From NCBI GenBank assembly GCA_902786565.1, contig CADACW010000001.1, forward strand, positions 55,151 through 119,150: a stretch of 64,000 bases of DNA. Direction: 5' to 3'. The notes beneath the pieces were generated by a model, which saw nothing but the letters and a program-made list of their open reading frames with translations, was not told the DNA's origin and made no database searches. A program made the translations under genes and the position numbers. This DNA comes from an uncultured Prevotellaceae bacterium. Its GTDB lineage: Bacteria > Bacteroidota > Bacteroidia > Bacteroidales > Bacteroidaceae. Positions 918-62,043 of the stretch are shown piece by piece; position 1 is the first letter of the stretch, and each line of letters starts with the position of its first letter.

Positions 918-2618
918 ATGGGATCATTCCAATGGCTTTCTGCCCTCTTCACCAATACCACGTCGGTGGCACACATAGCGCTTCTCTACGCCATTGTGAT
1001 TGCCGTCGGCGTCTATTTGGGTAAAATCAAGATACTGGGCATTTCACTTGGCGTTACCTTTGTGCTCTTTGCGGGCATTGTCGTCGGCCACATCTTCCAT
1101 TTCTACGGAATGGAGGCTGCCCCGACCAACATTCTGACGTTTATTCAGGACTTCGGCCTCATCCTCTTTGTCTTTATGATTGGTTTGCAGGTGGGTCCTG
1201 GCTTCTTTGAGAGCTTCGGCAAGGCGGGCATCAAGCTCAACGGCCTGGCCGCCTCAGCCATCATGCTCAATATCCTCGTGATGTTCGCCTGCTATTACAT
1301 CTTCTTCGATACCAGCGACCCGACAACGCTGCCCATGATGGTGGGCACGCTCTACGGCGCAGTGACCAACACGCCCGGTCTGGGTGCTGCCAACGAGGCC
1401 CTGACATCGGTCTTCGGGACCAACGCCCCACAGATTGCCTCGGCCTACGCCTGCGCCTATCCGCTCGGTGTGCTGGGCATTATCGGTGCCATCATCCTGA
1501 CCCGCTACATCTGCAAAGTCCAGCTGGAGAAGGAGGAAGAGCGCCTGACGGCCATGGAGGAAACAAAAGCCAACAAGAAGCCCTTCAAGATGCACTTGGA
1601 GGTAACCAACAAGTACCTTGAAGGCAAGACGCTGCTGCAGGTGCACAACTTCCTGAACCGCGACTTTGTCGTGTCACGCTTGGTCCACAACGGCGAGTTG
1701 TGCATCCCTAACCGCGACACCATTTTCCATTTGGGCGACCAGATGCTTATAGTGTGTGCCGAGGCCGACCACGAGGCCATCATGGCTTTCATCGGCCCGA
1801 TGATTGACATTGACTTTGAGCAGCAGGACCAGCCGCTCGTGTCGAAGCGCATCCTCATAACCAACCCTGAAATCAACGGTAAGTCGATGGCTTCGATGCA
1901 CTTCTCCAGCGTCTACGGTGTGAACGTCACCCGCCTCACCCGCCATGGCATCGACCTCTTTGCCTCTGCCGGCCTGCCCCTCCAGGTGGGCGACAAGATT
2001 ATGGTTGTGGGCCCTGAGGATGCCGTTGACCGTGTGGCCACCAAGATGGGCAACAGCGTGAAGCGCCTGAATGCTCCCAACATCGCCACCATCTTCGTGG
2101 GCATTTTCCTCGGCATCATCTTCGGCTCGCTTCCCTTCATTCCGGGCATGCCTCTGATGAAACTGGGCATTGCCGGCGGTCCGCTCATCGTGGCCATCCT
2201 CATTGGCCGCTATGGCTATAAGCTCCGCCTCGTCACCTACACCACCACCTCGGCCAACATGATGTTGCGCGAGATAGGACTGGCGCTATTCCTTGCCTCG
2301 GTGGGCATCAAGGCGGGTGCGGGCTTCTTCGAAACCGTGATGGAAGGCGACGGCCTGCTCTATGTGCTGACGGGCTTCCTCATCACCGTCATACCTATTC
2401 TTATAATAGGCCCATTGGCTCGCTGGAAGTTCAATTTCAACTATTTCACCATCGCTGGTATGCTGGCAGGCACCTACACCGACCCGCCCGCACTGGCCTA
2501 TTCAAACAGCATCTGCTCGCGTGAGGCACCGGCCTTGGGCTACTCCACTGTGTACCCGTTCTCGATGTTCCTACGCATCCTGACCGCACAGCTCATCGTG
2601 CTGTTCTTCTGCGGATAA
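918..2618 (+). CDS. AspT/YidE/YbjL-family putative exchanger with two TrkA-C domains
   Basis: Two hydrophobic blocks with the duplicated motifs [12 protein letters not shown] and [10 protein letters not shown] flank a soluble RCK-C region. This is the YidE/YbjL layout. Confidence 0.85.
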
Positions 2619-11753: not shown

Positions 11754-12165
11754 GGAAAGCACTGCCACGGTCTGCCGCTGGCCCCGCTCCGTGCATGAAT
11801 TCTTATGCCTACGGGGAGGGGCGGGAGGAAAGTCCGGGCAGCAGAGGGCGCTCCACTTCCGAAAATAGAAGCAGTTGGCGACAGCTGGATATGGGAGAAG
11901 AGAACGACCGCCCGGCCAGTCCGGGTAAGGGTGAGAAGGTGGTGTAAGAGACCACCAGCCGGCGGGTGATCGTCGGGCTGTTCCATCTGGAGGCTGCAAG
12001 TTCATGTAAACCATCGCCATGCAAGGGTTGCCCGCCCGATTCCGCCCCGGCGGTTGCGATGGAGGGTAGAACGCTGGAGACGTGCGGCGACGCACGTAGT
12101 AGATAAATGGCAGACACTGGCAGCAATGCCAGCACAGAACCCGGCTTACAGGGGCAGTGCTTTCC
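11754..12165 (+). ncRNA. rnpB: RNase P RNA (type A)
   Basis: Universal GAGGAAAGTCC at 11825-11835 and ACAGAACCCGGCTTA at 12134-12148. Closing helix GGAAAGCACTGCC / GGCAGTGCTTTCC, followed by a T-tract. Confidence 0.97.
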
Positions 12166-12196: not shown

Positions 12197-13525
12197 TTGA
12201 AGGTTAAGGAGCTGAAAGAGTTTTTCCAGGTGGGCATCTGGCGGGTGGACGACGACGAGCTGCCGCCCGTGCGCCGACTGCTGTATGCCGTTGTGAAGAC
12301 GGCCTATCTGGCCATTCGCTTCTTCACCACCAAGCGGGTGCTGACGCAGGCCTCGGCCCTGACCTACAGCACACTGCTGGCCATCGTGCCCATCCTGGCC
12401 GTGGTGTTTGCCATTGCCCGCGGCTTCGGCTATAATAAATATATAGAGGTATGGTTTCGCGACGCCTTCTCGTCGCAGCCCCAGGTGGCCGAGGTGATGA
12501 TTGGCTTCGTCAACAGCTATCTGGTCCACACGCGGAGCGGCATCTTCCTGGGCGTGGGCCTGGTGTTCATGCTCTACACGGTGCTGATGCTGGTGAACAA
12601 TATCGAGCTGACCTTCAACGAGATATGGCAGGTGAAGAAGAAGCGCAGCATCTTCCGCACCATCACCGACTATCTGGCCATGTTCTTCCTCTTCCCCATC
12701 CTGATAGTCGTCTCGTCGGGCATCAGCCTGTTTCTGGCCACGGTGGCCAAGTCGCTGCCCGACTTTCTGCTGCTGGGGCCGGCAGTGAGGAAGCTCATCG
12801 ACCTGTCGCCCTACGTGCTCATGTCGCTGCTCTTCATCGGCCTCTACGTCTTCATGCCCAACACCCATGTGCGGGTGCGCAACGCCATCGTGCCGGGCAT
12901 CCTGTCGGGCATCGCCATGCAGCTGCTGCAGTTTGTCTACATCCACTCGCAGATATGGGTGACGGGCTACAACGCCATCTACGGCTCGTTTGCAGCCCTG
13001 CCGCTGTTCATGCTGTGGCTGCAGCTGTCGTGGACCATCTGCCTCTTCGGTGCCGAGCTGACCTACACGTCGCAAAACCTTGACTACTACGACTATAACG
13101 CCACAACCGACGACATCAGCCACCGCTACCAGCTGATGATCAGCGCCCTGCTGATGTCGCGCATCTGCCGCCGGTTTGCCGACGGGCGCAAGGCGCCCAC
13201 CGCCGACGACCTGCGACAGGAGACGGGCGTGCCCATCCGCATAGTCAACGACCTGCTCTTCCGGCTGATGGAGGCCCGCATGCTCATTGAGGTGTCGCCC
13301 GACGAGAAGGGCGACGCATCGACCTTCGTGCCAGCTGAAAGTTTGGACAACCTGAACGTGGGCGTAATGATTGACCGCCTGGAGGCGCAGGGCCGCTGGC
13401 AGCTGGAGCTGCCCGTGGCCGGACTGATGACCGCCGAATGGGCCAAGGCCATACAGCTGCGCTCGGACTTCCTGCGGCAGTTGCGAGCCATCCGGCTGGA
13501 GCAACTACAGAGAATTGAAAATTGA
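12197..13525 (+). CDS. YihY/virulence factor BrkB family membrane protein
   Basis: ASALTYSTLLAIVP, FNEIWQVK, YNAIYGSFAALPLFMLWLQLSWTICLFGAE. The TTG start is uncertain. Confidence 0.9.
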   Translation: MKVKELKEFFQVGIWRVDDDELPPVRRLLYAVVKTAYLAIRFFTTKRVLTQASALTYSTLLAIVPILAVVFAIARGFGYNKYIEVWFRDAFSSQPQVAEVMIGFVNSYLVHTRSGIFLGVGLVFMLYTVLMLVNNIELTFNEIWQVKKKRSIFRTITDYLAMFFLFPILIVVSSGISLFLATVAKSLPDFLLLGPAVRKLIDLSPYVLMSLLFIGLYVFMPNTHVRVRNAIVPGILSGIAMQLLQFVYIHSQIWVTGYNAIYGSFAALPLFMLWLQLSWTICLFGAELTYTSQNLDYYDYNATTDDISHRYQLMISALLMSRICRRFADGRKAPTADDLRQETGVPIRIVNDLLFRLMEARMLIEVSPDEKGDASTFVPAESLDNLNVGVMIDRLEAQGRWQLELPVAGLMTAEWAKAIQLRSDFLRQLRAIRLEQLQRIEN

Positions 13526-13591
13526 AAATTGAAAATTGAAAATCGAAAATCGAAAATTGAAAATTGAAAATTGAGAATTGAAAATTGAAAA
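13510..13591 (+). repeat. Heptamer tandem repeat (GA[A/G]AAT[T/C]) x11.7
   Basis: Counted directly: 11 full units at 13510-13586 plus a partial unit. It spans the yihY stop codon and the translation-initiation region of the next gene. Confidence 0.95.
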
Positions 13592-13595
13592 AGAT

Positions 13596-14606
13596 ATGAA
13601 ACTACTGAGACTGATGGCGGCAATGGCCGTCGTGCTGCTGTGCACAGCGGCTACTACCGAGAAGACTACAACCATCTTCATCATCGGCGACTCTACGGCT
13701 GCCAACAAAGACATTTCCAACGGCAAGCAGGAGCGCGGATGGGGCATGGCGCTGCAATGCTACTTCGACGACAACATCCGCGTGGACAACCATGCCGTGA
13801 ACGGTCGCTCGTCGCTGAGTTTCATCAACGAGGGCCGGTGGGACAAGGTGCTGGAGCGCCTGCGCCCCGGCGACTACGTCATCATACAGTTTGGCCACAA
13901 CGACGAGAAGCCCAAGGCCGACCGGCACACCGACCCCGGCTCGACCTTCGACTACAACCTGGCAAAATATGTGCGCGAGACCCGCGAAAAGGGCGGCATA
14001 CCGGTGCTGATGAACTGTGTGGTGCGCCGCAACTTCTTCGTCAGAGCCCCTGAGAACGATGACGACGAGAAGCTGCGCACCACGACCTTCAAGGACGGTG
14101 TGAAGATGGTGGAGGGCGACTCACTCATCGACACCCACGGACTCTACCGGGTGGCTCCCCGCGACGTGGCCCGCCGCATGAACGTCCATTTCATCGACGC
14201 CAACCAGATAACCCACGACCTGGAGCAGGGCCTGGGCACCGAGGCGTCGAAGGGTCTGCACATGTGGTTCCTGCCCGGCCAGGAGCCCAGCGTGCCCGAC
14301 GGCCGCCAGGACAACACCCACTACAATGTCTATGGTGCCCACGTGGTGGCACGGCTGCTGGCCGACGCTCTCTGCAACGAGATTCCTGTGCTGCGCAAAT
14401 ACCGCACCGAGGCCGATTTCACCGTAGACCGTCAGGGGCGCGGCGACTATATGGACCTGCAGCAGGCCGTAGATGCCGCCCTGTTGCGCTCCAACGCCGA
14501 AACCACCATCCAGATTCTGGGCGGACAGTGGACAAAGCCCCAGCTGCCCAAGAAGAGCCGCATCAAGTTCGTCTTGCGCGAAGGGGCGACTTTTGTTCAG
14601 AGATAA
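13596..14606 (+). CDS. Rhamnogalacturonan/pectin acetylesterase (SGNH, CE12-like) with a short pectinesterase-like C-terminal stub
   Basis: Signal peptide, then SGNH blocks IGDST, NHAVNGRSS, QFGHND and DNTHY. Tail VDRQGRGDYMDLQQAVDAA resembles a CE8 N-terminus. Confidence 0.85.
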   Translation: MKLLRLMAAMAVVLLCTAATTEKTTTIFIIGDSTAANKDISNGKQERGWGMALQCYFDDNIRVDNHAVNGRSSLSFINEGRWDKVLERLRPGDYVIIQFGHNDEKPKADRHTDPGSTFDYNLAKYVRETREKGGIPVLMNCVVRRNFFVRAPENDDDEKLRTTTFKDGVKMVEGDSLIDTHGLYRVAPRDVARRMNVHFIDANQITHDLEQGLGTEASKGLHMWFLPGQEPSVPDGRQDNTHYNVYGAHVVARLLADALCNEIPVLRKYRTEADFTVDRQGRGDYMDLQQAVDAALLRSNAETTIQILGGQWTKPQLPKKSRIKFVLREGATFVQR

Positions 14607-23352: not shown

Positions 23353-23493
23353 GTGTCAAAACTTAATATCGACCAGAAATCTATCAAAGATCTATTTAGT
23401 GACAACAAGGCAGATTTTCTTATTCCTGACTATCAACGTCCTTACGCATGGCAGGAAAAAGAAGCTTATAAATTGGTATGGCAAACGAGATAG
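23353..23493 (+). pseudogene. N-terminal stub of a DUF262 (GmrSD-type) protein
   Basis: Translated by hand; it is below the ORF-track cutoff. GTG-SKLNIDQKSIKDLFSDNKADFLIPDYQRPYAWQEKEAYKLVWQTR*. IPDYQRPYAW is the DUF262 first motif. Confidence 0.75.
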
Positions 23494-24376
23494 AGAAAAG
23501 AAATGAGGCTTTCCTGATTTATCAGGACGACAACGGCATAGCACGGGTCAATGTGCGGTTCGAGGGAGAGGATGTGTGGCTGACAGCGGAACAACTGATG
23601 GAGCTATTCGACGCATCGCAGCAGGATGTGAGCTATCACATCAAGCAGATATACGCAGAGGGGGAACAGGACCCAGAACGAACTCACAAAAAATTTTTGT
23701 TAGTTCGACAGGAGGGAAACAGGAGTGTACGCAGACAGATGAGCCACTATAATCTGGACATGATTATCGCCGTGGGCTATCGTGTGAAGTCACAGGTAGC
23801 AACACGTTTCCGCCAATGGGCTCGAAGAGAAAAATCGGAAATTCCGATTTTTCTACGAAACCAACAAACTTATATAACCTCGACGTGATTATCTCTGTCG
23901 GCTATCGGGTGAAGTCTATTCAAGGTACCCGTTTCCGCCAATGGGCGACAGAACGGCTGCATGAGTATATCGTGAAAGGCTTTGCACTCGACGATGAACG
24001 ATTGAAGAACTTGGGCGGTGGCAGCTACTGGAAGGAACTGCTTGACCGCATTCGCGATATCCGTTCCTCTGAAAAGGTACTTTATCGTCAGGTGCTTGAC
24101 CTCTATGCCACCGCCGTTGATTACGATCCTCGCTCTGACACCTCAAAGCTATTCTTTAAGATTGTACAGAAATCATCTACACCAGAGCAGACGCGGAGAT
24201 GCCACACATGGGTTTGACCTCATGGAAGAATGCCCCTGATGGAAGCGTTCAGAAATCTGACACAATAATAGAATTCCGTATAGCACAAGACCGTGAATAT
24301 CTTTCTGACTTTTGACCAGGCAATCAAAAAGTGGCGTGAGAACGGACTATTCGATGACAAAAGCCAATTGTCATGA
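23478..24376 (+). pseudogene. Mosaic, fragmented RhuM-family (virulence RhuM) gene
   Basis: Fragments in different frames: VWLTAEQLMELF...YNLDMIIAVGYRVKS...FRQWA; YNLDVIISVGYRVKS...YWKELLDRIRDIRSSEK...FFKIVQ; IIYTRADAEMPHMGLTSWKNAPDG; RIAQDREYLSDF. They are separated by frameshifts and apparent deletions. Confidence 0.85.
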
Positions 24377-24800: not shown

Positions 24801-27800
24801 ATGAGAAAACTTAAACTATTATGGCTGCCCTTGCCCTAACGGGGTGGGGTAACTTTGTGCTTGCGCAAACAGACGTGACAAGCACGTACATCACGAATGC
24901 CGGGTTTGACACTGAAAGCGATTTCCAGACAGGAAATGTTGCAACTGGCGATAGTAACCAACGTAAGGCAGTTACGAGTTGGAGCAATACTGGTGGTAAC
25001 ACCTATTCTACTGGTGCTGCTATTGGTTTCGGTACATCAGGACAGATTAATGGTGCCAATCTACCCAGTAACAATGCAGATGGTGCAACTACTGGCGGTG
25101 CTCTGTGTCTCAATGCAGCATGGAAGTCTCAAGTATGGTACTCACAAAACGTAACTTTTCCTGCAGGTAACTATGCCATGAAGTTTATGGTGAACAATGT
25201 AGGAAAGAACGAACAATTTGAAAAAGACCCAGTTATGTTCTCGTTCACGACAACAACTGGAGCAAGTTTTTCTGGTAACGTTCACTCTTATCCTGTCAAT
25301 ACTTGGACAGAACAGACTATTAACTTCGCCCTGGCTACCGAAACAGAAGGTACAATTAAAATTGGTTATAAGTCTACCAACACGGGGTCGGGCAACACTC
25401 CGAAACTTGTGGTTGACTATGTAAAGGCTTTTTACAACTCAAACTATAAGGAAACCCTCCAGTCGACCATCGACCGTGCTACAATTCTTAACGCACGTGC
25501 CTCTGACAGCGACCTTGCTGCTGCCATTACCACGGCTCAGGGTGTTCTCGATGGAGCTGATAACACCGTAGCTTATCAGGCAAACATTGATGAAGCAGTA
25601 ACAACGTTGCGTGCAGCTATCAGCACCGCACAGGCCAAAGTCGTCCTGCTCGAAGGAGAAAATATCACGTTCATATTAGAGAATGCTGACTTCGAGAGCA
25701 GCACACCCGTTACTGTTGGCATCACCACATACGACTACGATGCAGCCACGAACGGTACATCCTTCAGCCGTATGCAGATAGTTGAAGGCTGGACGATTGC
25801 TGAGAATGGCAATGGCAGGTCTGCCGGTATATTCAAGTTTGGAGAGAATTCTTTCTTGGGTAGTGTGGGCACACAATATCAAGCTCCCGCATCTGGCTCT
25901 GCTAGCGGAGAGGAAAAGGCTCTTGGTATCGTAGCAGTATGGCAAGCTTCGGCACAATATAAGCAGAACGTCACTCTGCCTGCAGGCAGCTATATTATCG
26001 AAGTGCCTGTTTACAACACCGCTGGTACCGCAGCATTTAAAAAGAACTTGATAGGCTTTGTGGAGAATGGCGGAACCGAGCATCTGGCTTCTGCCAAAAC
26101 ATACGCTACAGGCAGCTGGATAACAGAAAAAGTTATTTTTGAGCTCGAAAACGAGACATCGGGCTACATGTCTCTGGGTTATACTTCTGATAACAAAGGT
26201 TCTGGAGACATGCCCCACCTGTTTATTGACAACGTGAAGGTGACTTACACCTCGCCTATAGCAGCAGCATATCAGAAGTATCAAGTTGCCTTGGCAGCAG
26301 CTCAGGCAGCCATTGCCAATACTGACTACGACAATGTTACTGGCGATGAGCGCACCGCTCTGCAGAATGCCATTGATGCAACACCTGAGACCACAAAGGA
26401 GGGCTATAACAATGCCGCTGATGCTCTCGACGCAGCTCGTGAGACCTTTACAAACGCCAAGAGTGCATACGATGCCTTTGTTGCTGCAAAAGCAACTACC
26501 GTTCCCGACCTGGCCTATGCAGCAACCGCTAAGAAGACTGCTCTTGAAGAGGCCATTGCAGCTACTGCCACCACTGCAGCTGATGCTAACACGAAGGCTG
26601 CTGCCATCACTACCGACCTTCGCGCCTACTACGAGAGCCACGCTTTGGCTGAGGGTGTTGCTGGTGCTGTAAACATGACCGATAAAATTGTCAATGCCAA
26701 CGATCCTAAGGACAATGAAGGATGGACATGGACAGGCAACAAGAATAATCCTGCCAGCAATGAGTCTTGGACTGATGCCAACGGTACTAACGACCATTCT
26801 TACTTCGACGGTGGCAACTGGAACGGTACTTCATGGACAACGACCATGGAGCAGACTATTGAACTTCCCGCAGGTAAGTACCTGCTCACCGCCAAAGGAC
26901 GAGCCATGACCAGCACCACGCTTACGCTTTCAGTTGGCGAAGTAAATGTAGCTCTGCCCCATATCGGAAGTACCGGCAACGTGTTCGACCGTGGATGGGG
27001 TGACGCTTCTCTTGAATTTACCACCGATGGAACTGCTGCTACTATAAAGGTAACTGCTACTGCTGAACCTACTCATGAGTGGTTCTCTGTTTGTGACTTC
27101 CGTCTCGTACAGTTGGAGTTCAACAGCGATGCATACGCTTCTTCGGCAACTGACTATGCCGACATGAACACAGCCATCACCAACGCCGAGTCAAAAACGC
27201 TCGGTTTCGAGGCAGGTGAATATGCCCCATACCTGAACGTTGAAGCCCTGAAGGCTCTGGCCGAGGCCAAGAAAATAGACCAAGATGCCCAAAACACCAA
27301 TCTTAAAACAACCATCGCCTCGCTTGTTGAGGCCATTAAGACCTTGACAGCAAACACCGCAGAGGTTAATGCTGTAAATACTGCACTCTTTACCTCTGGC
27401 GATGTCACTGGCACCGGCTGGACGCAAACCCAGACTTGGGGCCAAGTCAAGGAAGATGTGTACTCTACCAGCAACGGCACCTTCACCTACGGTGAGGTTG
27501 CAGGCTTTGAAATGCCTCTGAAAGCCAATACAGTTTACAAGCTTACATTCAATCACAGAGCATGGGATGGAAGCAACGCTGAGAACGGCGGTACAGTGTC
27601 TGTGCTTTGTGGAGAGGACGGCCTTGCCGCAACATCTTTCACTGGCCAAGGAACAAATACTACACCTAAGACCGAGACCTTCTACTTCAAGACCGGTGCT
27701 GCTGGTAACTATGTGTTCACGCTCAATGCTCCGAAAGGTCGCCCCACCTTCGGCGGTGTGACCATCCTCAAGGCCGTGGCTGAAGACATCACTATTTCTG

Positions 27801-28405
27801 AGAACGCTACAGCTGCTCCCGCCGAGAATTACGCCAACGTGACGCTGACCCGCACGCTGAAGGCTGACATTTGGAACACATTCTCGGTTCCCTTCGACGC
27901 CGCTATTCCTACTGGATGGACGGTGAAGGAGTTCAACAGTGCAACTGACAATACGCTGAACTTCAAAGATGCATCCGAGATCAAGGCTGGCGTTCCCTAT
28001 CTGGTGAAGACTACAGCTAACGTAGCTAACCCCATCTTCAATGGTGTGATTGTGAAGGCTACCGAGGGTGAGACCATGGGCACGGGTGACTACAAGTTTG
28101 CTGCCCAGATCTTCAACAAGTCTCTGGCTACCGACGGCACCGTGGCTTATCTGGCTACCGACGGCACTATTAAAAAGCTCGCTTCTGGTGGTAGCATCAA
28201 GGGTCTGCGTGCTTACTTCATCGTTCCCGCAACTGCTGCACCTGCCCGTATCGTCTTCATCGACGGCGGCAGCACCACAGGCATTGAGAGCGTGGCAAGC
28301 GAAAACCAAAAGGCCGAGAACGGTGTCTACGACCTGCAGGGCCGCAGCGTGAAGGCCATGAAGAAGGGCCTGTACATCGTCAATGGCAAGAAAGTCGTGA
28401 AGTAA
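24801..28405 (+). CDS. Large secreted multi-module protein with a T9SS-type CTD; apparent -1 frameshift in the signal peptide
   Basis: Three repeated beta-sandwich modules (YITNAGFD, ILENADFE, KIVNAN; ...LPAGxY...) separated by Ala-rich helical spacers. Tail TTGIESV...YDLQGRSV...KKGLYIVNGKKVVK. The ATG at 24801 (MRKLKLL) is out of frame with the long ORF starting at 24821. Confidence 0.8.
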
Positions 28406-28433: not shown

Positions 28434-28631
28434 ATGAAAAAGATGCAATATCTTCAGCCACAAACCGAAGTGGTACTGATAAAGACAAACACCCATCTGC
28501 TTGATGCCTCACCCAATACAATTAAGGGTGATGCTGAGAACACAATTCTTGACACAGAGAAAATGGAAGAAGGCAATGGTGGCGATGCAGCCTCACGCCA
28601 CTCTCTCTGGGATGACGAAGAAGACTTCTAA
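28434..28631 (+). CDS. 65-aa peptide with an MKKxxYxxP leader-like N-terminus
   Basis: MKKMQYLQPQTEVV...LLDAS...SRHSLWDDEEDF, 28 bp after the T9SS cargo gene and preceded by an A-rich initiation region. Confidence 0.7.
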   Translation: MKKMQYLQPQTEVVLIKTNTHLLDASPNTIKGDAENTILDTEKMEEGNGGDAASRHSLWDDEEDF

Positions 28632-28673: not shown

Positions 28674-28722
28674 ACTTTCAGGGCGCAGCTCCGTTGGTGG
28701 AGTCTGCGCCCTGAGTGTATGC
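28674..28722 (+). repeat. 49-bp direct repeat, copy 1 (bulged hairpin)
   Basis: ACTTTCAGGGCGCAGCTCCGTTGGTGGAGTCTGCGCCCTGAGTGTATGC, identical to 29211-29259. Confidence 0.95.
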
Positions 28723-28766
28723 ATAACTTTCCCGCCCTAAAATTTGGCGGTTCGGGAAATAGTTCG

Positions 28767-28774
28767 TATCTTTG
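28767..28774 (+). promoter_or_regulatory. Sigma-A promoter inside the repeat-bounded cassette
   Basis: TATCTTTG with TTTG at 28743-28746; ATG at 28798. Confidence 0.75.
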
Positions 28775-28797
28775 CAAGCGAATAAACTGTTTTTGCT

Positions 28798-28947
28798 ATG
28801 AAGGAAAAGATTTTTGAGGAAATGAATTCCTATCTTGACTCTGCAACTTCTGAGCAGTTGCTGGAAGACTTTGAGGAGATGAAGGCCCTTAAGGACGGGC
28901 CGATTGCTTCTGAATACACGGATGACGCTTGTCGTTTCGTGATGTAA
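28798..28947 (+). CDS. 49-aa acidic protein (not in the ORF track)
   Basis: Translated by hand: MKEKIFEEMNSYLDSATSEQLLEDFEEMKALKDGPIASEYTDDACRFVM*. It sits directly behind a consensus promoter. Confidence 0.6.
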   Translation: MKEKIFEEMNSYLDSATSEQLLEDFEEMKALKDGPIASEYTDDACRFVM

Positions 28948-28952
28948 CCAAG

Positions 28953-29198
28953 ATGCTTCAAGAAAAATTCAACTATCCGCAACTGACAGTATCTGCCGTT
29001 CTCAATGAAATGCGGAAACGCACAAGTTTTTCCAATACGGTAATCCGTGCTCGGTCTGAGCATTGGATACCAGGAAGTATGCATCTTCGGTTTGTCGATT
29101 ATGACAGGAGTTTTATGGTAATGCTGCCAGCAGTTCAGGTCTGTATTACTGACAGGAGTGTTATTAAAGAGTATAAGAAAATTTTTACCCAGCCTTAA
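28953..29198 (+). CDS. 81-aa hypothetical protein
   Basis: ATG 5 bp after the upstream stop: MLQEKFNYPQLTVSAVLNEMRKRTSF...IKEYKKIFTQP*. It ends 12 bp before repeat copy 2. Confidence 0.5.
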   Translation: MLQEKFNYPQLTVSAVLNEMRKRTSFSNTVIRARSEHWIPGSMHLRFVDYDRSFMVMLPAVQVCITDRSVIKEYKKIFTQP

Positions 29199-29210
29199 AC
29201 TTCTCCATAT

Positions 29211-29259
29211 ACTTTCAGGGCGCAGCTCCGTTGGTGGAGTCTGCGCCCTGAGTGTATGC
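29211..29259 (+). repeat. 49-bp direct repeat, copy 2
   Basis: Identical to 28674-28722. Confidence 0.95.
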
Positions 29260-29346
29260 CCTACTTTCTTAACTGAAAGGAATTGGAATAATTAGCCTGA
29301 ATTATTCACGGCAATTAATCTGTATGCCGCCAAGTCTTTCTTTTTT

Positions 29347-29431
29347 ACGCGAATTACCATGAATTAACCACGAATTTTTCATAAATAAAATATTAATGAT
29401 TCATTCGCGATTAATTATTGGTAATTCGCGT
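29347..29431. repeat. 13-bp inverted repeat with an AT-rich spacer, downstream of the GH128 gene
   Basis: ACGCGAATTACCA (29347-29359) / TGGTAATTCGCGT (29419-29431). Confidence 0.6.
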
Positions 29432-34320: not shown

Positions 34321-36213
34321 TTACTTCATTGGCAAATACCAATTCTTCTCGTCGAGCAGACTGACCTGTGGATTCTTGTAGGCCAGCTTGGCGGCGAGCC
34401 ACCGAGAACCGAAGTTGGCACCATAGGTACCGGCGACATTTTTGTGGCGGGCAATGCGGGTGAGGTCGCCAAAGCGGTTGCCCTCGAAGGCCAACTCAAG
34501 AGCCATCTCGTCGCAGATGATGTCCTCGACGGCATTGATGGTGTCCTGTTTGGAGAATTGAGAATTGAGAATTGAGAATTGAGCGTTCAGTTCGTCAAAC
34601 TTCTTCGCCACGATGCTGTCCAGCTGATAGGGCGAGAAAGCGCCCTGCGTGTAGTACGTGCCACGCGAATGGATGCCCCAGTTCTGAGCGAAGCCTTCCT
34701 TGTTCTCGTCGCTGAGGAAGGGTATGGTGGTGCGTAGCATCTGGTAGGTGGCGGGCTTGATGTAGCGTCCAGGCACGGCGAGGTCGGTGGAGTCGCCCTG
34801 AATGACGTAGGCAGTGAGGTCTTCGTTGATGCCATCCTTCAGTATGGCAAAGGCAGCATCGGGATAGCCCATGCGGTTGAGGGCCTCGGCCAGGCGCAGA
34901 TAGACGGTGGCCGTGCGGTAGATGGGGATATTGGCCGAGCTGAACTTGGTGAGCACGGCGTAGGTCTGCGCTGCCTGTGCGGCGGTGGCGGCGGTGGTCA
35001 CCTGGTGCATGGAGGCCAGCCGGCGCATGTCGCCAATCTCGGCAATGCGCACCTCGGTCTGGGCGTCGGTCTGCCCAGTGGGGGTGTAATAATAGTCCTG
35101 GCGGTCAGAGAGGGCGACATATGAGGGCGAGGCATCGACCTGCCGCTCCAACAGATAACGTGCATCCGACGAGGCTCCGCCACTGGTGGTGCTGTAGAAG
35201 TCGTAGCCGAAGATGCGTGGCAGGTCGGTGACGACGCCGCGCAGGCGGTTGGCGGCCAGGGGGATATAGGTCACGATGTCGTTGGTGGAGGTGGTGCTGA
35301 AGATGGAGGTCCAGGAGAAGCTGTTGCTGCCGATGGTGAAGTTGAGGGAGGTGGGCAGACGGTCGCCCAGCTGGTCGATGTAATTCATCGGGAGAATGTA
35401 AGCCTGACGCACCTGCCACTGGTTGTTGCGCAGGAAATTGAAGTAGCTGCGTGCAGCGCGCTCATACTGATGGGTCTCCAGAAAGAGGTCGCCGAGAACC
35501 ACATCGACAGGAATCATGGCATAGCGCGAGGTGACCGTCTTTTCGACGGGGTTGTCGCTATCGCTGCTGTTGAGCACACCGGCCGAGATGTTGCCATAGG
35601 TGGGAACGGGGGTGCCGCTATACTTGATGAGCTCTGGCACTAGTGCGTCGCAGATGCCCTGCAGGTCCTTCTGCTCGGTGACGCTGTTGGCATCGCCTAT
35701 GGAGACGAGCGGGTCGGTATAGAAAGGCACGGTGCCATAGTTCTTGCAGAGCTGAAGGTAAGCCCAAGCGCGCACAGCGAGTGCCTCGGCATATTCGGGT
35801 ATGGCCACCTTGCGGCTACCGGTGAGCAGGGTGGTGTCGCGATGTGCCAGATAGTAATTGCAGTTGTTGATGATGCGATAGTAGAGATAGGCAGAGTCGT
35901 ACTTGCAGGTGGCATCGGCCGAGAAGTCGGCCAGCCGGCGCAGGTCGGTCTCCGTATATTCGTTGGTGGCGGTAAGGTCGCCACGCATCTCTCCCTGAAG
36001 CACATACTGGTCGGCCACCTGCTGGAGTCCCTTCAGTATGCCGAGCGTATAGAACATGGAGTCGGTCTTCTCGCTGAGTGAGGGGTCGAAGATCTGACGG
36101 TCGCTGTCGGTCTCGAACATGTCGGAACAGGAAGAAATGAGAAATGAGAAATGAGAAATGAGAAATGCTGCACACAGCATCCGCTTCACAGTCTTATTTG
36201 TTTTGGTAATCAT
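34321..36213 (-). CDS. susD: SusD/RagB-family lipoprotein (second pair)
   Basis: Lipobox ISSC, YYRIINNCNYYL, AEALAVRAWAYLQL, YLRLAEALN and ELAFEGNRFGDLTR. It follows a susC. Confidence 0.88.
   Translation of the reverse strand: MITKTNKTVKRMLCAAFLISHFSFLISSCSDMFETDSDRQIFDPSLSEKTDSMFYTLGILKGLQQVADQYVLQGEMRGDLTATNEYTETDLRRLADFSADATCKYDSAYLYYRIINNCNYYLAHRDTTLLTGSRKVAIPEYAEALAVRAWAYLQLCKNYGTVPFYTDPLVSIGDANSVTEQKDLQGICDALVPELIKYSGTPVPTYGNISAGVLNSSDSDNPVEKTVTSRYAMIPVDVVLGDLFLETHQYERAARSYFNFLRNNQWQVRQAYILPMNYIDQLGDRLPTSLNFTIGSNSFSWTSIFSTTSTNDIVTYIPLAANRLRGVVTDLPRIFGYDFYSTTSGGASSDARYLLERQVDASPSYVALSDRQDYYYTPTGQTDAQTEVRIAEIGDMRRLASMHQVTTAATAAQAAQTYAVLTKFSSANIPIYRTATVYLRLAEALNRMGYPDAAFAILKDGINEDLTAYVIQGDSTDLAVPGRYIKPATYQMLRTTIPFLSDENKEGFAQNWGIHSRGTYYTQGAFSPYQLDSIVAKKFDELNAQFSILNSQFSKQDTINAVEDIICDEMALELAFEGNRFGDLTRIARHKNVAGTYGANFGSRWLAAKLAYKNPQVSLLDEKNWYLPMK
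34553..34580. repeat. (GAGAATT)x4 inside the susD coding sequence
   Basis: Encodes QFSILNSQFS near the C-terminus. Confidence 0.9.
36134..36167. repeat. (GAAATGA)x4.9 encoding the signal-peptide core of SusD
   Basis: Perfect heptamer run encoding FLISHFSFLISS. Confidence 0.95.
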
Positions 36214-41372: not shown

Positions 41373-43436
41373 TTAATACATGTCTTCAGCATAGATGGTG
41401 TTATTGTAGATGTTCTCAGGGCAGAACTCTATGTAGTCGAGGTGGAACTGTGCTCCAGTGTTGTCGGGCAGCACGGTCTTGAAGCGGAGCCAGTATTCTC
41501 CCTGCTCAAAGTTCTGCTTGGCAATGATTCGCCGCAGGTCCTCGCGGTTGGAGCGGGCCACAGTGGAGCCGTTGGGGCCGAGGGTGTAGTAGAGCGGGCC
41601 ACGCATATAGCCGAGGTTGTGCATATTGTTGTCGCTCTCCACACCACGGTCGTCAGTAACGGTCCAGAGGCACCATCCGGTGCGGGTGTCGGGTGTTCCG
41701 TCGCTGTTGTTGGCCGGGACGAATCGCATGTCGAGCGGGATGTCAAGGGCCTCCATCGTGGTCTGGTCATTGCTGCGTCCGAGGTAGAACTGCAGCATGC
41801 CGCGTGCGCCGTTGGCAGTATAGCCGATTCGCAGCTCGTAGGTGCCGTCGGGCACTGGCGGCAGGCGCATGGCGAAGTCGTAGGCTCCGACGCAGAGGAA
41901 CTCGTCGCCCTCGTAGTTGGACCAAGCACCATCGTCGGGAGCGAGGTAACGGAGCTGTGTGTCGTCGCCGTTATAGACGGTGAGGTGGTCGAAGTAGTTG
42001 CTGGGGAAGCGCACTCGGCTGAAGTCGCCGCCATCGACGTGGGCCTTGATTTCGGCAACGGTCATGCCGCGTATGCCATTGGACATCATCTCACCGAGGA
42101 GCGATGTGTCGTCGAAGCGGAGCCGCTCGTTGAGCGCTCCCTGGGGCACGTCGGCGTTATAGACGAGGAGGCCGTTGAGCGGATGGATATAGCCATTGGC
42201 GGCGGCCACCTGACTGTTCTGCCCGGCAAGTTCGACACCCTCGAAGAGCACGGTGTGCATGGCGTTGGTTCCGAGCTCGGCCACACGGTCAGTGAGCGAG
42301 TTGTTGGCCGTCCAGCGGTTGAGCAGACGCTTGCCGCTGTTGCGGGTCAGCTTTATCAAGGTATAGGGAAGCATGGTCTCATAATACTCGCAGAGTGTGA
42401 CCTTCGACACCTGGTTGTAGTCGTAGACGAGCTTGTTCCAGGGCACCTTGTACTGCACGAGGTGATATCGCACGAACATGTTGAGCACGTTCCAGGGGTT
42501 CTCGTAGTCGCGGCCGGTGCTGACTTCGATATTGTTACGGCGTGCATAGTCGTACCATCCGCTGCCCTCGTCGGCACAGGCGGCATATTGCTCGGCGGCA
42601 TATTTTGCCAAATCGTCAATGCCATTGATGCCGTTGGCTTTGAACACTTCGTCGGTCTCGGCAAAGACGGTGTAGCCCAGCTCGCACTTTTCAGGCACCC
42701 AGTAGGTGGTCTCATTGGTCACCTCCTTGATGTCGGTCTTCTGCTGGAGGGTGAGTGAGTCGGCCAGCCCGGTGACTTTCAGGGCGTTTGAGAAAATGGT
42801 GAAGAGGTCGGGATGGCTCTCCATCTCGCCAGCCACGAGGAGATTGGAGCGTGTGATGACGTGGTTCAACTCGTGCAGCACGCCGTTCTCAAGCTCGTTG
42901 TCCATGCTGGTGACGAGTGCGGCACGGCTAATGACGACCTGTCCGGAGACGGAGTCGATACTGGTGTTGATGTCGCGGCCCAGCAGCGTCTTGATGGTCA
43001 TGCCATTGCCCATATTCACGCCCATCACCTTTGTGTTGAGCAGATGGAAGAGTGCAATGTCTTCGCAGAGCGAGTCGGTGAGCCCCTCCAGTCCCCGTGC
43101 CGTCATGCCGTTGTGGGGCAGGTCTATGTTGGTGTTATCATCGTAGAGGCTGTCTATGTAGTTGGTCACGGCATCGTTGGTCGGTGCGAAGCAGGTGTAG
43201 GTGCCATAGGCGGAAAGAATCTTGTCGTAGCCTATGCGCGAGAGGATGTAGTTGAAAGAGCTGAACTGCTCGCTGCGGTTGGAGAGATAGTCCTCGATGG
43301 TCTCACCGGTGAAGGTGTACAGGTTGGACTCGTCAATGTCCTCGGAGCAGGAAGAAACGAGAAACGAGAAATGAGAAATGAGAAATGCCGCGCACGCCAC
43401 ACTCCATTTCACTCTTTGGTTTATCTTGGTAATCAT
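41373..43436 (-). CDS. Lipoprotein with two FAS1 domains and a C-terminal beta-sandwich
   Basis: Lipobox VSSC. YTCFAPTNDAV...ENGVLHELNHVI and YTVFAETDEVF...ANGYIHPLNGLL. Confidence 0.82.
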   Translation of the reverse strand: MITKINQRVKWSVACAAFLISHFSFLVSSCSEDIDESNLYTFTGETIEDYLSNRSEQFSSFNYILSRIGYDKILSAYGTYTCFAPTNDAVTNYIDSLYDDNTNIDLPHNGMTARGLEGLTDSLCEDIALFHLLNTKVMGVNMGNGMTIKTLLGRDINTSIDSVSGQVVISRAALVTSMDNELENGVLHELNHVITRSNLLVAGEMESHPDLFTIFSNALKVTGLADSLTLQQKTDIKEVTNETTYWVPEKCELGYTVFAETDEVFKANGINGIDDLAKYAAEQYAACADEGSGWYDYARRNNIEVSTGRDYENPWNVLNMFVRYHLVQYKVPWNKLVYDYNQVSKVTLCEYYETMLPYTLIKLTRNSGKRLLNRWTANNSLTDRVAELGTNAMHTVLFEGVELAGQNSQVAAANGYIHPLNGLLVYNADVPQGALNERLRFDDTSLLGEMMSNGIRGMTVAEIKAHVDGGDFSRVRFPSNYFDHLTVYNGDDTQLRYLAPDDGAWSNYEGDEFLCVGAYDFAMRLPPVPDGTYELRIGYTANGARGMLQFYLGRSNDQTTMEALDIPLDMRFVPANNSDGTPDTRTGWCLWTVTDDRGVESDNNMHNLGYMRGPLYYTLGPNGSTVARSNREDLRRIIAKQNFEQGEYWLRFKTVLPDNTGAQFHLDYIEFCPENIYNNTIYAEDMY
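43354..43387. repeat. (GAAA[C/T]GA)x4.9 encoding the signal-peptide core of a FAS1 lipoprotein
   Basis: Same length (34 bp) and register as 36134-36167; encodes FLISHFSFLVSS. Confidence 0.92.
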
Positions 43437-59071: not shown

Positions 59072-59367
59072 AAAGACAACCTGAACAACTAAAACAACAT
59101 AATGCACAAGCAGAAAAGTTGTCCAAGTTGTTCAGGTTGTCTTCAAGAATAAAAAGACAACAAGAACAACTAAAACAACCTACTTGCAAAAGCAGAATAA
59201 AAGTTGTCCAAGTTGTTCAGGTTGTCTTCAATATAATACAACTAAGACAAGTTACTGCATAAGCAGAAAAGTTGTCAAAGTTGTTCAAGTTGTCTTCAAT
59301 ATAATACAACTAAGACAACTTACTGCACAAGCAGAAAAGTTGTCCAAGTTGTTCGGGTTGTCTTCAA
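59072..59367. repeat. Array of four ~37-bp repeats plus inverted partial copies between convergent GH2 and alaS
   Basis: GCAGAAAAGTTGTCCAAGTTGTTCAGGTTGTCTTCAA at 59110-59146, 59192-59231 (+3 bp), 59263-59299 and 59331-59367. Complementary AAGACAACCTGAACAACT arms precede units 1 and 2. Confidence 0.9.
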
Positions 59368-59376
59368 GAAAATATA

Positions 59377-62043
59377 CTACAGGTTGGCCAGTTCCAACAC
59401 CTTGTCTACAGCGGCACTCAGGCCGTCGACATTCTTACCGCCAGCCTGGGCAAAGTGAGGCTGACCGCCACCGCCACCCTGGATGAGCTTGGCGGCCTCG
59501 CGCACCAGCTGACCGGCATTCAGACCGTGGTCGGCCACCACATCGTCGCTCAGCATGATGGTGAGCTGGGGCTTATCGTTGGCCTCAGTGCCGAGCACAC
59601 AGAGTAGCGAACCGTCCACACTGGCACGAATCTTAAAGGCCAAATCCTTGGCGGCCTGAGGCTCCAAGAGCAGAACAGAGGTGATCACCTTGACACCACT
59701 CATCAGGCGGGCTTTCTCGACCAACTGCTTGGCCAGACGCTCCACAGCCTGGGCCTGGAACGTGTCTATCTGCTTCTTCATGGCATCGTGCTCCTCAATA
59801 TACTTCTGGATGACACCCTGCAAGTCCTTGGCATTGTTGAAGAACGACTTCACGGCCTTCAGCGTGTCCTCGATATTGTAGAGCAACTCCTCGCACTGCT
59901 TGCCCGTGCGGGCCTCGATGCGGCGGATGCCGGCGGCCACGCTGCTCTCAGAGACAATCTTGAAGAAGCCGATGCGACCGGTAGAGGTGGCGTGGATGCC
60001 ACCACACAACTCGCACGACGGACCAAAGCGCATGACGCGCACCTTGTCGCCATACTTCTCGCCAAAGAGGGCGATGGCACCCAGCTTCTTGGCCTCGTCC
60101 ATAGGCATGTCGCGATGCTCGTCGCGGGGCAGGTCTTGGCGAATCATATCGTTGACCATACGCTCCACCTCGCGCAGCTGTTCGTCGCTGACCTTCTCGA
60201 AGTGGGAGAAGTCGAAGCGCAGAACGTCGGGGCTGACAAACGAGCCCTTCTGCTCCACATGGTCGCCGAGCACCTGCTTCAGAGCGTAGTCCAACAGATG
60301 GGTGGCGGTGTGGTTGGCAGCGCTGGCGTCGCGCTTGTCGGTGTCGACGCAGGCCATAAACTGTGCCGTCGGGTCTTTGGGCAACTCCTTGACGATGTGC
60401 ACAGTCTGGCCGTTCTCGCGCTTGGAGTCGACAATCTCAACGGTCTCGTTCTCGCTGACAAGAACGCCCTGTTCGCCCACCTGGCCGCCCATCTCGCCAT
60501 AGAACGGCGTATAGTCGAGCACCAGTTCGTAGAACACATTCTTCTTCTGCGTCACTTTGCGATAGCGCAGGATGTGGCAGGTATACTCGCTGAAGTCGTA
60601 GCCCACGAACTGCTGTTCGCCTGTGGCCAGCTCTGTCCAGTCGCTGTTCTCCACGGCGGCGGCATTGCGGGCACGCTCCTTCTGCTTCTGCATCTCGACG
60701 TTAAACTGCTCTTCGTTGACGGTGAAGCCGTTTTCACGACAGATGAGTTCCGTCAGGTCGAGAGGGAAGCCGTAGGTGTCGAACAGGCGGAAAGCCTCAA
60801 CACCGCTCAACTCCTTCACGCCCTTGCTCCTCATCTCATCCATGGCCTTGTCAAGCATGGAGATACCTTTGTCGAGGGTGCGGAGGAAGCTGTCCTCCTC
60901 TTCCTTGATGACGCGGCCGATGAGCTGCTGCTGGGCCTTCAGTTCGGGGAAGGCATCGCCCATCTCCTCGACGAGGGTGGGCAGAAGCTTGTAGAGGAAG
61001 GCCTCTTTCTGGCCAAGGAAGGTGTAGGCATAGCGGACGGCACGGCGCAGAATGCGGCGGATAACGTAGCCGGCCTTGGCATTGCTGGGCAGCTGGCCAT
61101 CGGCAATTGAAAACGACACGGCACGCAGATGGTCGGCGCAGACGCGCATGGCCACATTGATTTGTTCTTGAGTTGACGATTGGGTCGATGAGTCAACTTC
61201 TTCCTCGAAGGTGACGTACTTTAAGCCTGTAATCTGCTGTTCGGCCTTGATGATGGGCTGGAACACGTCGGTGTCGTAATTGGAGTGCTTGCCCTGCATC
61301 ATGCGGACAAGGCGCTCGAAGCCCATACCCGTGTCGATGACGTTCATCGAGAGCTTCTCCAGCGAACCGTCGGCCTTGCGGTTGAACTGCATGAAGACCA
61401 GGTTCCAAATCTCGATGACCTGTGGGTCGTCCTGGTTCACCAGCTCGCGGCCGCTCTTGCCGCTGGCCTTGCGCTGTTCGGGCGTGCGGCTGTCGACGTG
61501 GATTTCCGAGCAGGGACCACAGGGGCCTGTATCGCCCATCTCCCAGAAGTTGTCGTGCTTGTTGCCGTTGATGATATGGTCCTCAGGCACGTGCTTGGCC
61601 CAATATTTGGCAGCCTCGTCGTCGCGGGGGATGTTCTCTTCAGGCGAGCCCTCGAACACGGTGACGTAGAGGTCTTCGGGGTTCAGTTTCAGCACATCGA
61701 CCAGATACTCCCAGGCCATATCGATGGCGCCCTCCTTGAAGTAGTCGCCAAACGACCAGTTGCCCAGCATCTCAAACATGGTGTGGTGGTAGGTGTCATG
61801 TCCCACCTCCTCCAGGTCGTTGTGCTTGCCGCTGACGCGCAGGCACTTCTGCGTGTCGGCACGGCGGCGCGGCTCAGGGTCGCGTGTGCCGAGGATAATG
61901 TCTTTCCACTGGTTCATGCCGGCGTTGGTAAACATCAGCGTCGGGTCGTCCTTAATCACCATCGGTGCCGAGGGCACGATGGCATGTCCTTTCGACTCAA
62001 AAAACTTTTTAAATGAGTCGCGGATTTCTTTTGCAGTCATCAT
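59377..62043 (-). CDS. alaS: Alanyl-tRNA synthetase
   Basis: [55 protein letters not shown] and [13 protein letters not shown]. Confidence 0.98.

Follow-up and report, generated by a model that had tools for sequence, protein, structure and literature searches.

A decayed CmdTA-like toxin-antitoxin cassette, probably held in a strain-variable slot and bracketed by a duplicated terminator-type hairpin, in an uncultured Prevotellaceae bacterium

A stretch of 64,000 nucleotides (nt) from an uncultured Prevotellaceae bacterium (GenBank assembly GCA_902786565.1, contig CADACW010000001.1, positions 55,151 to 119,150 of the forward strand; hereafter, the window) holds two small open reading frames (ORFs) between two copies of a bulged hairpin. 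Is this pair a mobile gene cassette, moved by an enzyme acting in trans on the hairpins, as a sequence-only reading of the locus had proposed, or does it owe its place and its brackets to something else? The analysis reported here supports that proposal in part. The locus, in a rumen Prevotella-like genome, is probably a slot at a conserved operon's 3' end whose content varies between strains; it is occupied by a decayed CmdTA-like cassette and bracketed by a duplicated, terminator-type hairpin. Coordinates are those of the window; loci of relatives are cited by L-numbers and sequencing runs by X-numbers. The repeat copies and the flank beyond them are the following.

28674-28731, + strand: repeat copy R1, with its hairpin at 28678-28714; resident terminator-type stem-loop of the upstream operon
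29211-29268, + strand: repeat copy R2, with its hairpin at 29215-29251; starts 12 nt past the ORF2 stop; the duplicated copy
29269-29291, + strand: resident right flank, TTAACTGAAAGGAATTGGAATAATTAG, which in the empty-site relative L147 follows the single hairpin after an 11-nt spacer

R1 and R2 form a direct repeat of 58 nt with a start-to-start distance of 537, identical at 55 of the 58 positions and throughout the first 49, and they are the sole long hairpin-bearing repeat pair of the window. The 37-nt hairpin reads TCAGGGCGCAG-CTCC-GTTGGT-GGAG-T-CTGCGCCCTGA and occurs exactly twice in 64 kb, against no occurrence in 100 shuffles. With a folding energy of -32 to -35 kcal/mol (z between -6.4 and -7.6), it forms an uninterrupted outer stem of 11-12 bp, one bulged T on the 3' side and an inner stem of 4 bp, and the repeat reaches -4/+19 nt around the hairpin in the window lineage. 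Repeat search and fold thus bear out the description first given of the locus, namely identical 49-nt direct repeats forming bulged hairpins with one extrahelical T and no U-tract; the latter is missing after both R1 and R2, and likewise in L147, L119 and L150. Rfam holds no family for the hairpin, giving just chance sub-threshold matches, and the exact 35-nt hairpin finds no match in the metagenome contigs of the JGI.

A repeat pair of this kind might be a loop in a de Bruijn graph, the chromosome having in reality one hairpin and an unrelated sequence beside it. The k=31 unitigs do break at the repeat in X1 and in other runs, the graph being ambiguous when taken alone. Yet a 5447-nt contig (runs X2/X3) spans both copies, which it can do because one of them holds a substitution, the two differing there by one base; a k141 contig of the intact sister allele (L150) spans both repeats as well, and the same arrangement is seen in L153 and L148. 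Since independent assemblies span R1 and R2, an assembly loop is ruled out, and an artefact can practically be dismissed. The unitig depth of the 49-mer is about twice that of single-copy sequence, pointing to about two copies per genome. Depth over the cassette slightly above that of the flanks was considered as a sign of extra copies or circles and rejected, for strain mixtures split the flank depth.

What lies between the copies is best understood from relatives, and is listed here as it stands in the window.

28798-28947, + strand: ORF1 remnant of 49 amino acids (aa), made of the first 48 codons of a 77-aa acidic protein and one new codon
28935-29198, + strand: ORF2 remnant, about 87 codons from the C-terminal end of a CmdT-like ADP-ribosyltransferase toxin of 171 aa
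28934-28941, + strand: deletion scar with a single GTTTCGTG copy left; 369 bp (L150 873-1241) are gone

In other rumen samples a longer cassette, with ORFs of 77 and 171 aa, is found between the same repeats (L150, L148, L119/L120; also runs X6 and X17). Compared base by base with L150, the window misses 369 bp between two copies of GTTTCGTG; because of this deletion the 49-aa ORF is a truncated 77-aa gene, and the 81-aa ORF the C-terminal half of a toxin. For the latter, an ATG at 28953 (81 aa) and a TTG at 28929 (89 aa) are possible starts. The cassette unit, now 537 bp, was originally 906 bp. As to identity, the intact ORF2 of L150 (171 aa) matches the PADLOC profile PD-T4-9_A with an E value of 4.3e-36 over positions 5-174, while ORF2 of the window matches it with 1.8e-7 and over positions 87-174 of 187 only. 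PD-T4-9 is the CmdTAC toxin-antitoxin-chaperone phage defence of E. coli (PMC9519451, PMC11618068), and the catalytic Tyr of CmdT is residue 41 (PMC11618068). The alignment shows that one microhomology deletion took the C-terminus of the putative antitoxin together with the catalytic half of the toxin, which would have disarmed both at once.

The small partner is less easily placed. ORF1, its 77-aa form included, has no profile match in Pfam, NCBIfam, PHROGs or the PADLOC PD-T4-9 profiles, and CmdA sequences are reported to be widely variable (CmdTAC literature). A more distant Bacteroidales operon (L132) encodes an 80-aa homologue of ORF1 (44% identity), a SecB-like PD-T4-9_C protein (E 1e-46) and the toxin, and it does so without hairpins; the cargo family therefore exists independently of them. 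From its position and from this conserved partnership, ORF1 may be regarded as an antitoxin-like partner of the toxin. For ORF2 of the window there is no match in Pfam or NCBIfam; the small ORFs are without a match in Pfam, NCBIfam and PHROGs; the 81-aa product, searched for by identity, is not found; and no DNA similar to the intact cassette is present in the plasmid or phage collections searched.

With CmdTAC of E. coli the intact allele shares a large ORF homologous to CmdT and a small upstream partner whose acidic helical N-terminus is conserved, the related L132 operon having the SecB-like PD-T4-9_C gene too. Gene order differs, being partner-(chaperone)-toxin here and T-A-C there, and the SecB-like chaperone gene is absent from both the window and L150. 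Moreover, the window toxin is without its catalytic N-terminal half and the partner without its C-terminus, so that this copy cannot work as CmdTAC does. The cargo is thus a decayed CmdT/CmdA (PD-T4-9) toxin-antitoxin defence cassette, a known toxin family and ordinary in itself. The two-gene cassette that had been read from the sequence does consist of ORFs of 49 and 81 aa, but both are truncated remnants of longer genes; the toxin-antitoxin pair it was likened to is there by descent, ORF2 coming from a CmdT/PD-T4-9_A toxin and ORF1 from its conserved upstream partner, but as what a deletion left and not as a working system.

Is the remnant a transcription unit of its own? Between R1 and ORF1 lies one further feature.

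28743-28774, + strand: cassette promoter of Bacteroidetes type, read from sequence, with a -33 box TTTG at 28743-28746 and a -7 box TATCTTTG at 28767-28774

The boxes are assigned by the Bacteroides sigma-A consensus, and a generic sigma-70 scan misses them. The deleted allele is present in three rumen metatranscriptomes, as contigs of 28800-29325 (X39), 28803-29220 (X40) and 28824-29211 (X41). All three begin just past the predicted promoter (28800-28824), without the promoter or R1; two stop at the 5' edge of R2, and that of X39 reads through to 29325. They are assembled contigs and not end-mapped reads; their extent fits a unit transcribed by itself, with the promoter and R2 as its limits and R2 as the likely terminator or insulator of the cassette. 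A promoter between the repeats, also foreseen, is present in Bacteroidetes-type form, and the unit is transcribed separately in the rumen. The locus offers a clean natural case of a toxin-antitoxin defence module neutralised by one microhomology deletion, its remnant still being transcribed. In each metagenome the promoter core (28739-28779) matches at least 10 other contigs at ≥85% over 34-41 nt; the matches end sharply at the -33 and -7 boxes, and there is no second copy within the window.

The same flanks carry other contents in other strains. In L147, which is ~10% diverged, a single hairpin and an 11-nt spacer are followed by the sequence found after R2 in the window, that is, an empty site. 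Single-hairpin loci are also those of L079 and L130, from another species, where other toxin-antitoxin pairs lie further downstream. L124 (run X27, also X29) is near-identical to the window through R1 and the promoter, the identical promoter standing there ahead of HigBA, and encodes HigB/HigA from 28776 on; the boundary of the cargo swap thus falls after the promoter (28776) and not at the hairpin. Altogether, the CmdTA-like cassette is found in its deletion form in the window, L153 and X1/X2/X9/X10 and intact in L150, L148 and L119, HigBA in L124/X27/X29, and the empty state in L147: shared flanks with alternative content, an empty state included, in close relatives, as a variable slot has them. 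The CmdTA-like cassette was found only at this locus, none being seen at a second location, and HigB homologues elsewhere (the P0018 and P0015 loci) are not flanked by the hairpin.

A second case comes from L051, a Prevotella metagenome-assembled genome from red deer. It has its own variant of the hairpin, with an inner stem CCGCA/TGCGG and the same bulged T, in copies 1124 bp apart around a promoter and two unrelated genes, and its repeat reaches -13/+3 nt around the hairpin. The two genes have nothing in Pfam, NCBIfam or PHROGs, and the 164-aa protein nothing meaningful in a PDB sequence search. Comparison of these loci shows that the hairpin was duplicated around inserted cargo at least two times, independently, in the window lineage and in L051. 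Two expectations that went with the cassette proposal are hence borne out: copies of the hairpin bracket variable cargo (HigBA behind the same hairpin in L124, other genes between the copies of L051), and an empty site with one hairpin exists in relatives (L147, also L079/L130).

Where does the hairpin itself belong? It stands behind a conserved operon of two genes.

24821-28405, + strand: giant surface-type protein gene, 1194 aa, first gene of the conserved upstream operon
28434-28631, + strand: 65-aa ORF (MKKMQYLQPQTEV...SLWDDEEDF), second gene of that operon
28434-28631 in the window, 6145-6342 in L051, 1881-2075 in L079 and 5033-5224 in L129: members of the small-ORF family

The tail of the giant protein, ...GLYIVNGKKVVK, is conserved in relatives (pattern ...GLYI.NGKK..K), and homologues of its gene precede the small ORF in L051, L079, L126, L127, L129 and L130. 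Neither Pfam nor NCBIfam has a match for it at E<=0.01, and its tail resembles a type IX secretion system signal by eye only. The 65-aa ORF has 9 close homologues, and 86 clusters at 50% identity (1.84 billion representatives), without annotation. The family spans 56-71 aa (MKK.QY.QP...VWDDEE..), its ends being conserved and its middle hypervariable even between near-identical strains. Its members stand always behind a giant protein with the same C-terminal tail and always ahead of a hairpin of this family, in the window lineage (L119, L124, L147, L148, L150) as in others (L051, L122, L079, L130, L126, L127, L129, L131). Most of the relatives' loci hold a single hairpin, which is solo at the equivalent position in L147, L079, L130, L126, L127, L129 and L131. 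As an observation apart, relatives lead one to expect the giant gene to begin at an ATG at 24803 (MRKLKLL...), but the long ORF from 24821 is in another frame; the break at 24803-24830 is a sequencing error or else a frameshift within the signal peptide.

In seven of the 11 lineages compared, four to six T follow a few bases past the stem (L051, first copy, L122, L079, L130, L126, L129 and L131), and this gives the hairpin the form of an intrinsic terminator. Across the eleven, pairing is found in 92% of cells, the shuffles giving 86%. GC/CG/AU exchanges occur in the inner stem, a change from AU to UA in one outer pair, and several U-G wobbles on the sense strand; the bulged base lies always on the 3' side, between outer and inner stems, whereas inner stem and loop vary. 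These compensatory changes and wobbles fit a structure that would be kept in RNA, or in the + strand. A loose-pattern hairpin search of genome contigs yielded, among the matches listed, L051, L079 and other Prevotella loci, as well as unrelated G+C-rich hairpins of many phyla. By such comparisons the hairpin is a conserved, putatively terminator-type stem-loop of the operon of the giant protein and the 65-aa ORF, solo in most relatives. Like intrinsic terminators, it is a G+C-rich stem-loop set 40-50 nt past the last stop codon of the operon; most relatives have a U-tract, the sense strand keeps the structure through compensatory and wobble changes, and the RNA contigs of two of three runs end at R2. 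A U-tract right after the stem is what the window lineage lacks. The state of relatives and the ends of the RNA contigs suggest that the hairpin would act as a terminator there as well. A hairpin that is a common solo REP without associated cargo, with no empty-site allele, had been named as what would speak against a cassette; it is solo in most relatives, yet the empty-site allele exists.

Taken together, the evidence is best accommodated by a decayed CmdTA-like cassette in a strain-variable slot. R1 would end the upstream operon, the promoter at 28743-28774 would drive the cargo, and R2 would stop transcription ahead of the convergent dockerin gene; as the hairpin segment recurs 12 nt after the cargo stop, the unit runs, insulated, from promoter to terminator. 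The order of events was an insertion of the cassette, as seen against the empty-site relative, and later the 369-bp deletion, as seen against the intact allele. The insertion may have proceeded by recombination at the hairpin, with hairpin-bearing DNA of the same species being integrated in a Campbell-like or a site-specific manner, which would explain why the copies are identical within a genome and different between species; any enzyme involved would be encoded outside the window. Replacement of the cargo between strains (CmdTA-like, HigBA, none) would probably have occurred by homologous recombination in the conserved flanks.

Several points weigh against this account. Set beside L147, the inserted DNA starts 11 nt past R1 and has R2 at its 3' terminus, so that neither a clean target duplication nor a clean crossover within the hairpin is seen, though L147 is ~10% diverged. 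The repeat extends differently around the hairpin in the two lineages, -4/+19 in the window and -13/+3 in L051. The hairpin of the window lineage has no U-tract after it, and one RNA contig passes R2. Position and conserved partnership are the sole grounds for an antitoxin role of ORF1, and recombination at the hairpin as the origin of its duplication is something that we infer. The hairpin departs from ordinary intrinsic terminators in an unusually conserved outer stem and a fixed position of the bulge, hinting at recognition beyond mere termination; as eight of the 11 lineages were retrieved by a pattern demanding the outer stem, the invariance of that stem is not independent evidence. A staggered-cut target-site duplication, a Xer/dif-type module and a group IIC intron footprint were considered and rejected, given that the offsets of the repeat are variable, that the arms have too great a length and G+C content, and that no intron is present.

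The features that hint at recognition lead back to the mobile cassette, in which an integron-integrase-like or HUH/Y1-like enzyme, provided in trans, would read the single-stranded bulged hairpin, excise a circle and reinsert it at another hairpin, the hairpins being attC-like sites of terminator origin. The presence/absence polymorphism, in which the empty site has one hairpin, is what such a mechanism would produce, and so is the recurrence in L051 with other cargo, with copies identical within a genome and different between species. Chromosomal integrons often carry toxin-antitoxin cassettes, and their hairpin copies are species-specific in the same manner. Like an integron cassette, the unit is compact and ends in an imperfect palindrome at a stop codon, R2 abutting the stop of the cargo in both lineages, and an architecture in which the outer stem is invariant, the extrahelical base sits always on the 3' side and the inner stem and loop vary recalls the attC layout (PMC2727003). 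An attC site, however, has R'' (RYYYAAC) and R' (GTTRRRY) boxes, an unpaired central spacer and two or three extrahelical bases (in part from PMC2727003), whereas the palindrome here ends ACTTTCAGGG...CCCTGAGTGT, has its sole GTT in the loop (GTTGGT), and folds with no unpaired central spacer and with one bulge only. Further, the unit has its own promoter, the hairpin is already present at the empty site as the terminator of the operon, and the U-G wobbles favour a structure at the RNA level. There is a single cassette per locus, at one locus only, and no array, the two hairpin copies being all that 64 kb contain; the swap boundary lies after the promoter (28776), and the offset of the repeat boundaries is not the same in the two lineages. 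Among window ORFs of ≥150 aa, Pfam scans reveal neither an integrase nor a transposase nor a HUH gene, and skip or back joints, the marks of excision or circles, are not seen in the Logan unitigs of 14 runs, which break at the 49-nt repeat.

Membership in the other hairpin-guided families that had been invoked fares no better. IS200/IS605 elements and their cargo-less derivatives, the palindrome-associated transposable elements, carry at each end a bulged subterminal hairpin, the two being oriented alike, and no terminal inverted repeats, as here; unlike them, this hairpin exists in about two copies, one of which is left at the empty site (L147), at a single locus. Repetitive extragenic palindromic (REP) sequences and their RAYT transposases make dispersed families of tens to hundreds, while in relatives the present hairpin is tied to the position behind the small ORF, and neither a TnpA nor a RAYT gene occurs among the window ORFs scanned. 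Neither attC, IS200/IS605 nor REP is thus an apt label for what appears to be the terminator-type stem-loop of a resident operon, and movement of the unit by an enzyme in trans, with no recombinase in the window and no second locus, is unlikely. That rumen Prevotella should possess an undescribed cassette system directed by hairpins, with terminator-derived bulged hairpins as attC-like sites and an enzyme encoded in trans, is a bolder proposition still, and one we hold to be quite unlikely; if true, resident operons would gain and lose self-expressed toxin-antitoxin or defence cassettes at their 3' ends, the resident hairpin being duplicated each time.

At the other end of the range, the hairpin may need no mechanism of its own: toxin-antitoxin cassettes would simply carry generic promoters and terminators of resident families, R2 having become identical to R1 by short-tract gene conversion, or the unit having been assembled through short homologies in promoter cores and terminator stems. 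It agrees with this that hairpins with the ten-base stem CAGGGCGCAG follow unrelated genes in other Prevotella genomes (L023, L033, L092), that a hairpin identical at 34 of 37 positions, with other flanks and a U-tract, stands behind a higA-like 3' end in X27/X29 (its linkage to L124 not being firm), that the promoter core is multi-copy in metagenomes, and that the whole locus is a recombination mosaic. Yet outside the hairpin the copies remain identical over 17-19 nt on the 3' side of the stem here, and over 13 nt on its 5' side in L051, for which conversion between merely similar hairpins is not readily sufficient. Perfect copies were moreover reached in two independent lineages, the depth of the 49-mer fits two copies per genome and not a dispersed family, and the promoter core is found just once in the window. 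We consider this explanation improbable on balance.

Much less credit is due to template switching, in which a fork stalled at the palindrome would let the nascent strand copy cargo from elsewhere, return upstream and copy the hairpin again, as a one-off event without any enzyme. The varying position of the repeat boundary relative to the hairpin is in its favour, as are the tight joints of the cargo at the ORF ends and the microhomology-mediated deletion of 369 bp at the same locus; but R2 is not followed by the 11-nt spacer that stands after R1, two independent rare events are needed, one in the window lineage and one in L051, and no donor copy of the cargo was found nearby. It is, accordingly, very unlikely to account for the locus.

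The strain-variable slot at an operon's end has its closest parallel in the minimal mobile elements of Neisseria and in the hotspots of defence and toxin-antitoxin genes between core genes. As in these, shared flanks enclose alternative cassettes (CmdTA-like, HigBA or none, with Phd-like and HEPN/MNT modules in L079/L130), no recombinase is attached, and homologous recombination in the flanks best accounts for the exchange. To our knowledge, neither Neisseria elements nor such hotspots duplicate a flanking terminator hairpin around the cassette, and we know of no described mechanism that explains the exact duplication of a terminator hairpin around inserted cargo. The region downstream of the giant-protein operon is a general toxin-antitoxin or defence hotspot, and the duplicated terminator around the cassette is an extra, undescribed feature with respect to known ones. 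Should recombination at the hairpin be its source, transcription terminators would be tied to the long-standing question of the origin of attC sites; were it to arise by gene conversion or template switching, it would be a curiosity of palindrome instability.

A few further observations concern the surroundings. Past the solo hairpins of other lineages there are modules with promoters of their own, at 2743-3302 in L079, 8195-9186 (reverse) in L130 and 1200-2045 (reverse) in L127, which hold respectively a Phd-like ORF with a 98-aa ORF, a HEPN with a nucleotidyltransferase (by eye), and an Rpn/YhgA-like nuclease (by eye). Beyond the right flank of the cassette, an AT-rich element (29292 to ~29470) contains a 41-nt inverted repeat (29347-29431) and has, in rumen metagenomes, 10-20x the local depth; L150, L152, L079 and L130 have it at the same place, it is absent there in L147, and it looks like a MITE (miniature inverted-repeat transposable element) or another multi-copy intergenic element beside a terminator. 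On the other side, gene fragments lie in a stretch low in G+C at 23353-24217: what looks by eye like a DUF262-like N-terminus, and a pair of partial RhuM-family ORFs with a 74-nt repeat in common (23748-23821, 23873-23946). Such remains mark 23.3-29.5 kb, the cassette included, as a variable island with decayed defence-type genes.

Elsewhere in the window, intergenic arrays of tandem heptamers (GAAAATT, GAGAATT, GAGAAAT) lie at 13496-13605, 34539-34592, 36125-36178 and 43345-43384, two of them ahead of SusC/SusD-like gene pairs. Four tandem units of 68 nt (59109-59397) separate a GH2-family gene from that of alanyl-tRNA synthetase, and 11759-12164 encodes an RNase P RNA of bacterial class A (182.7 bits).

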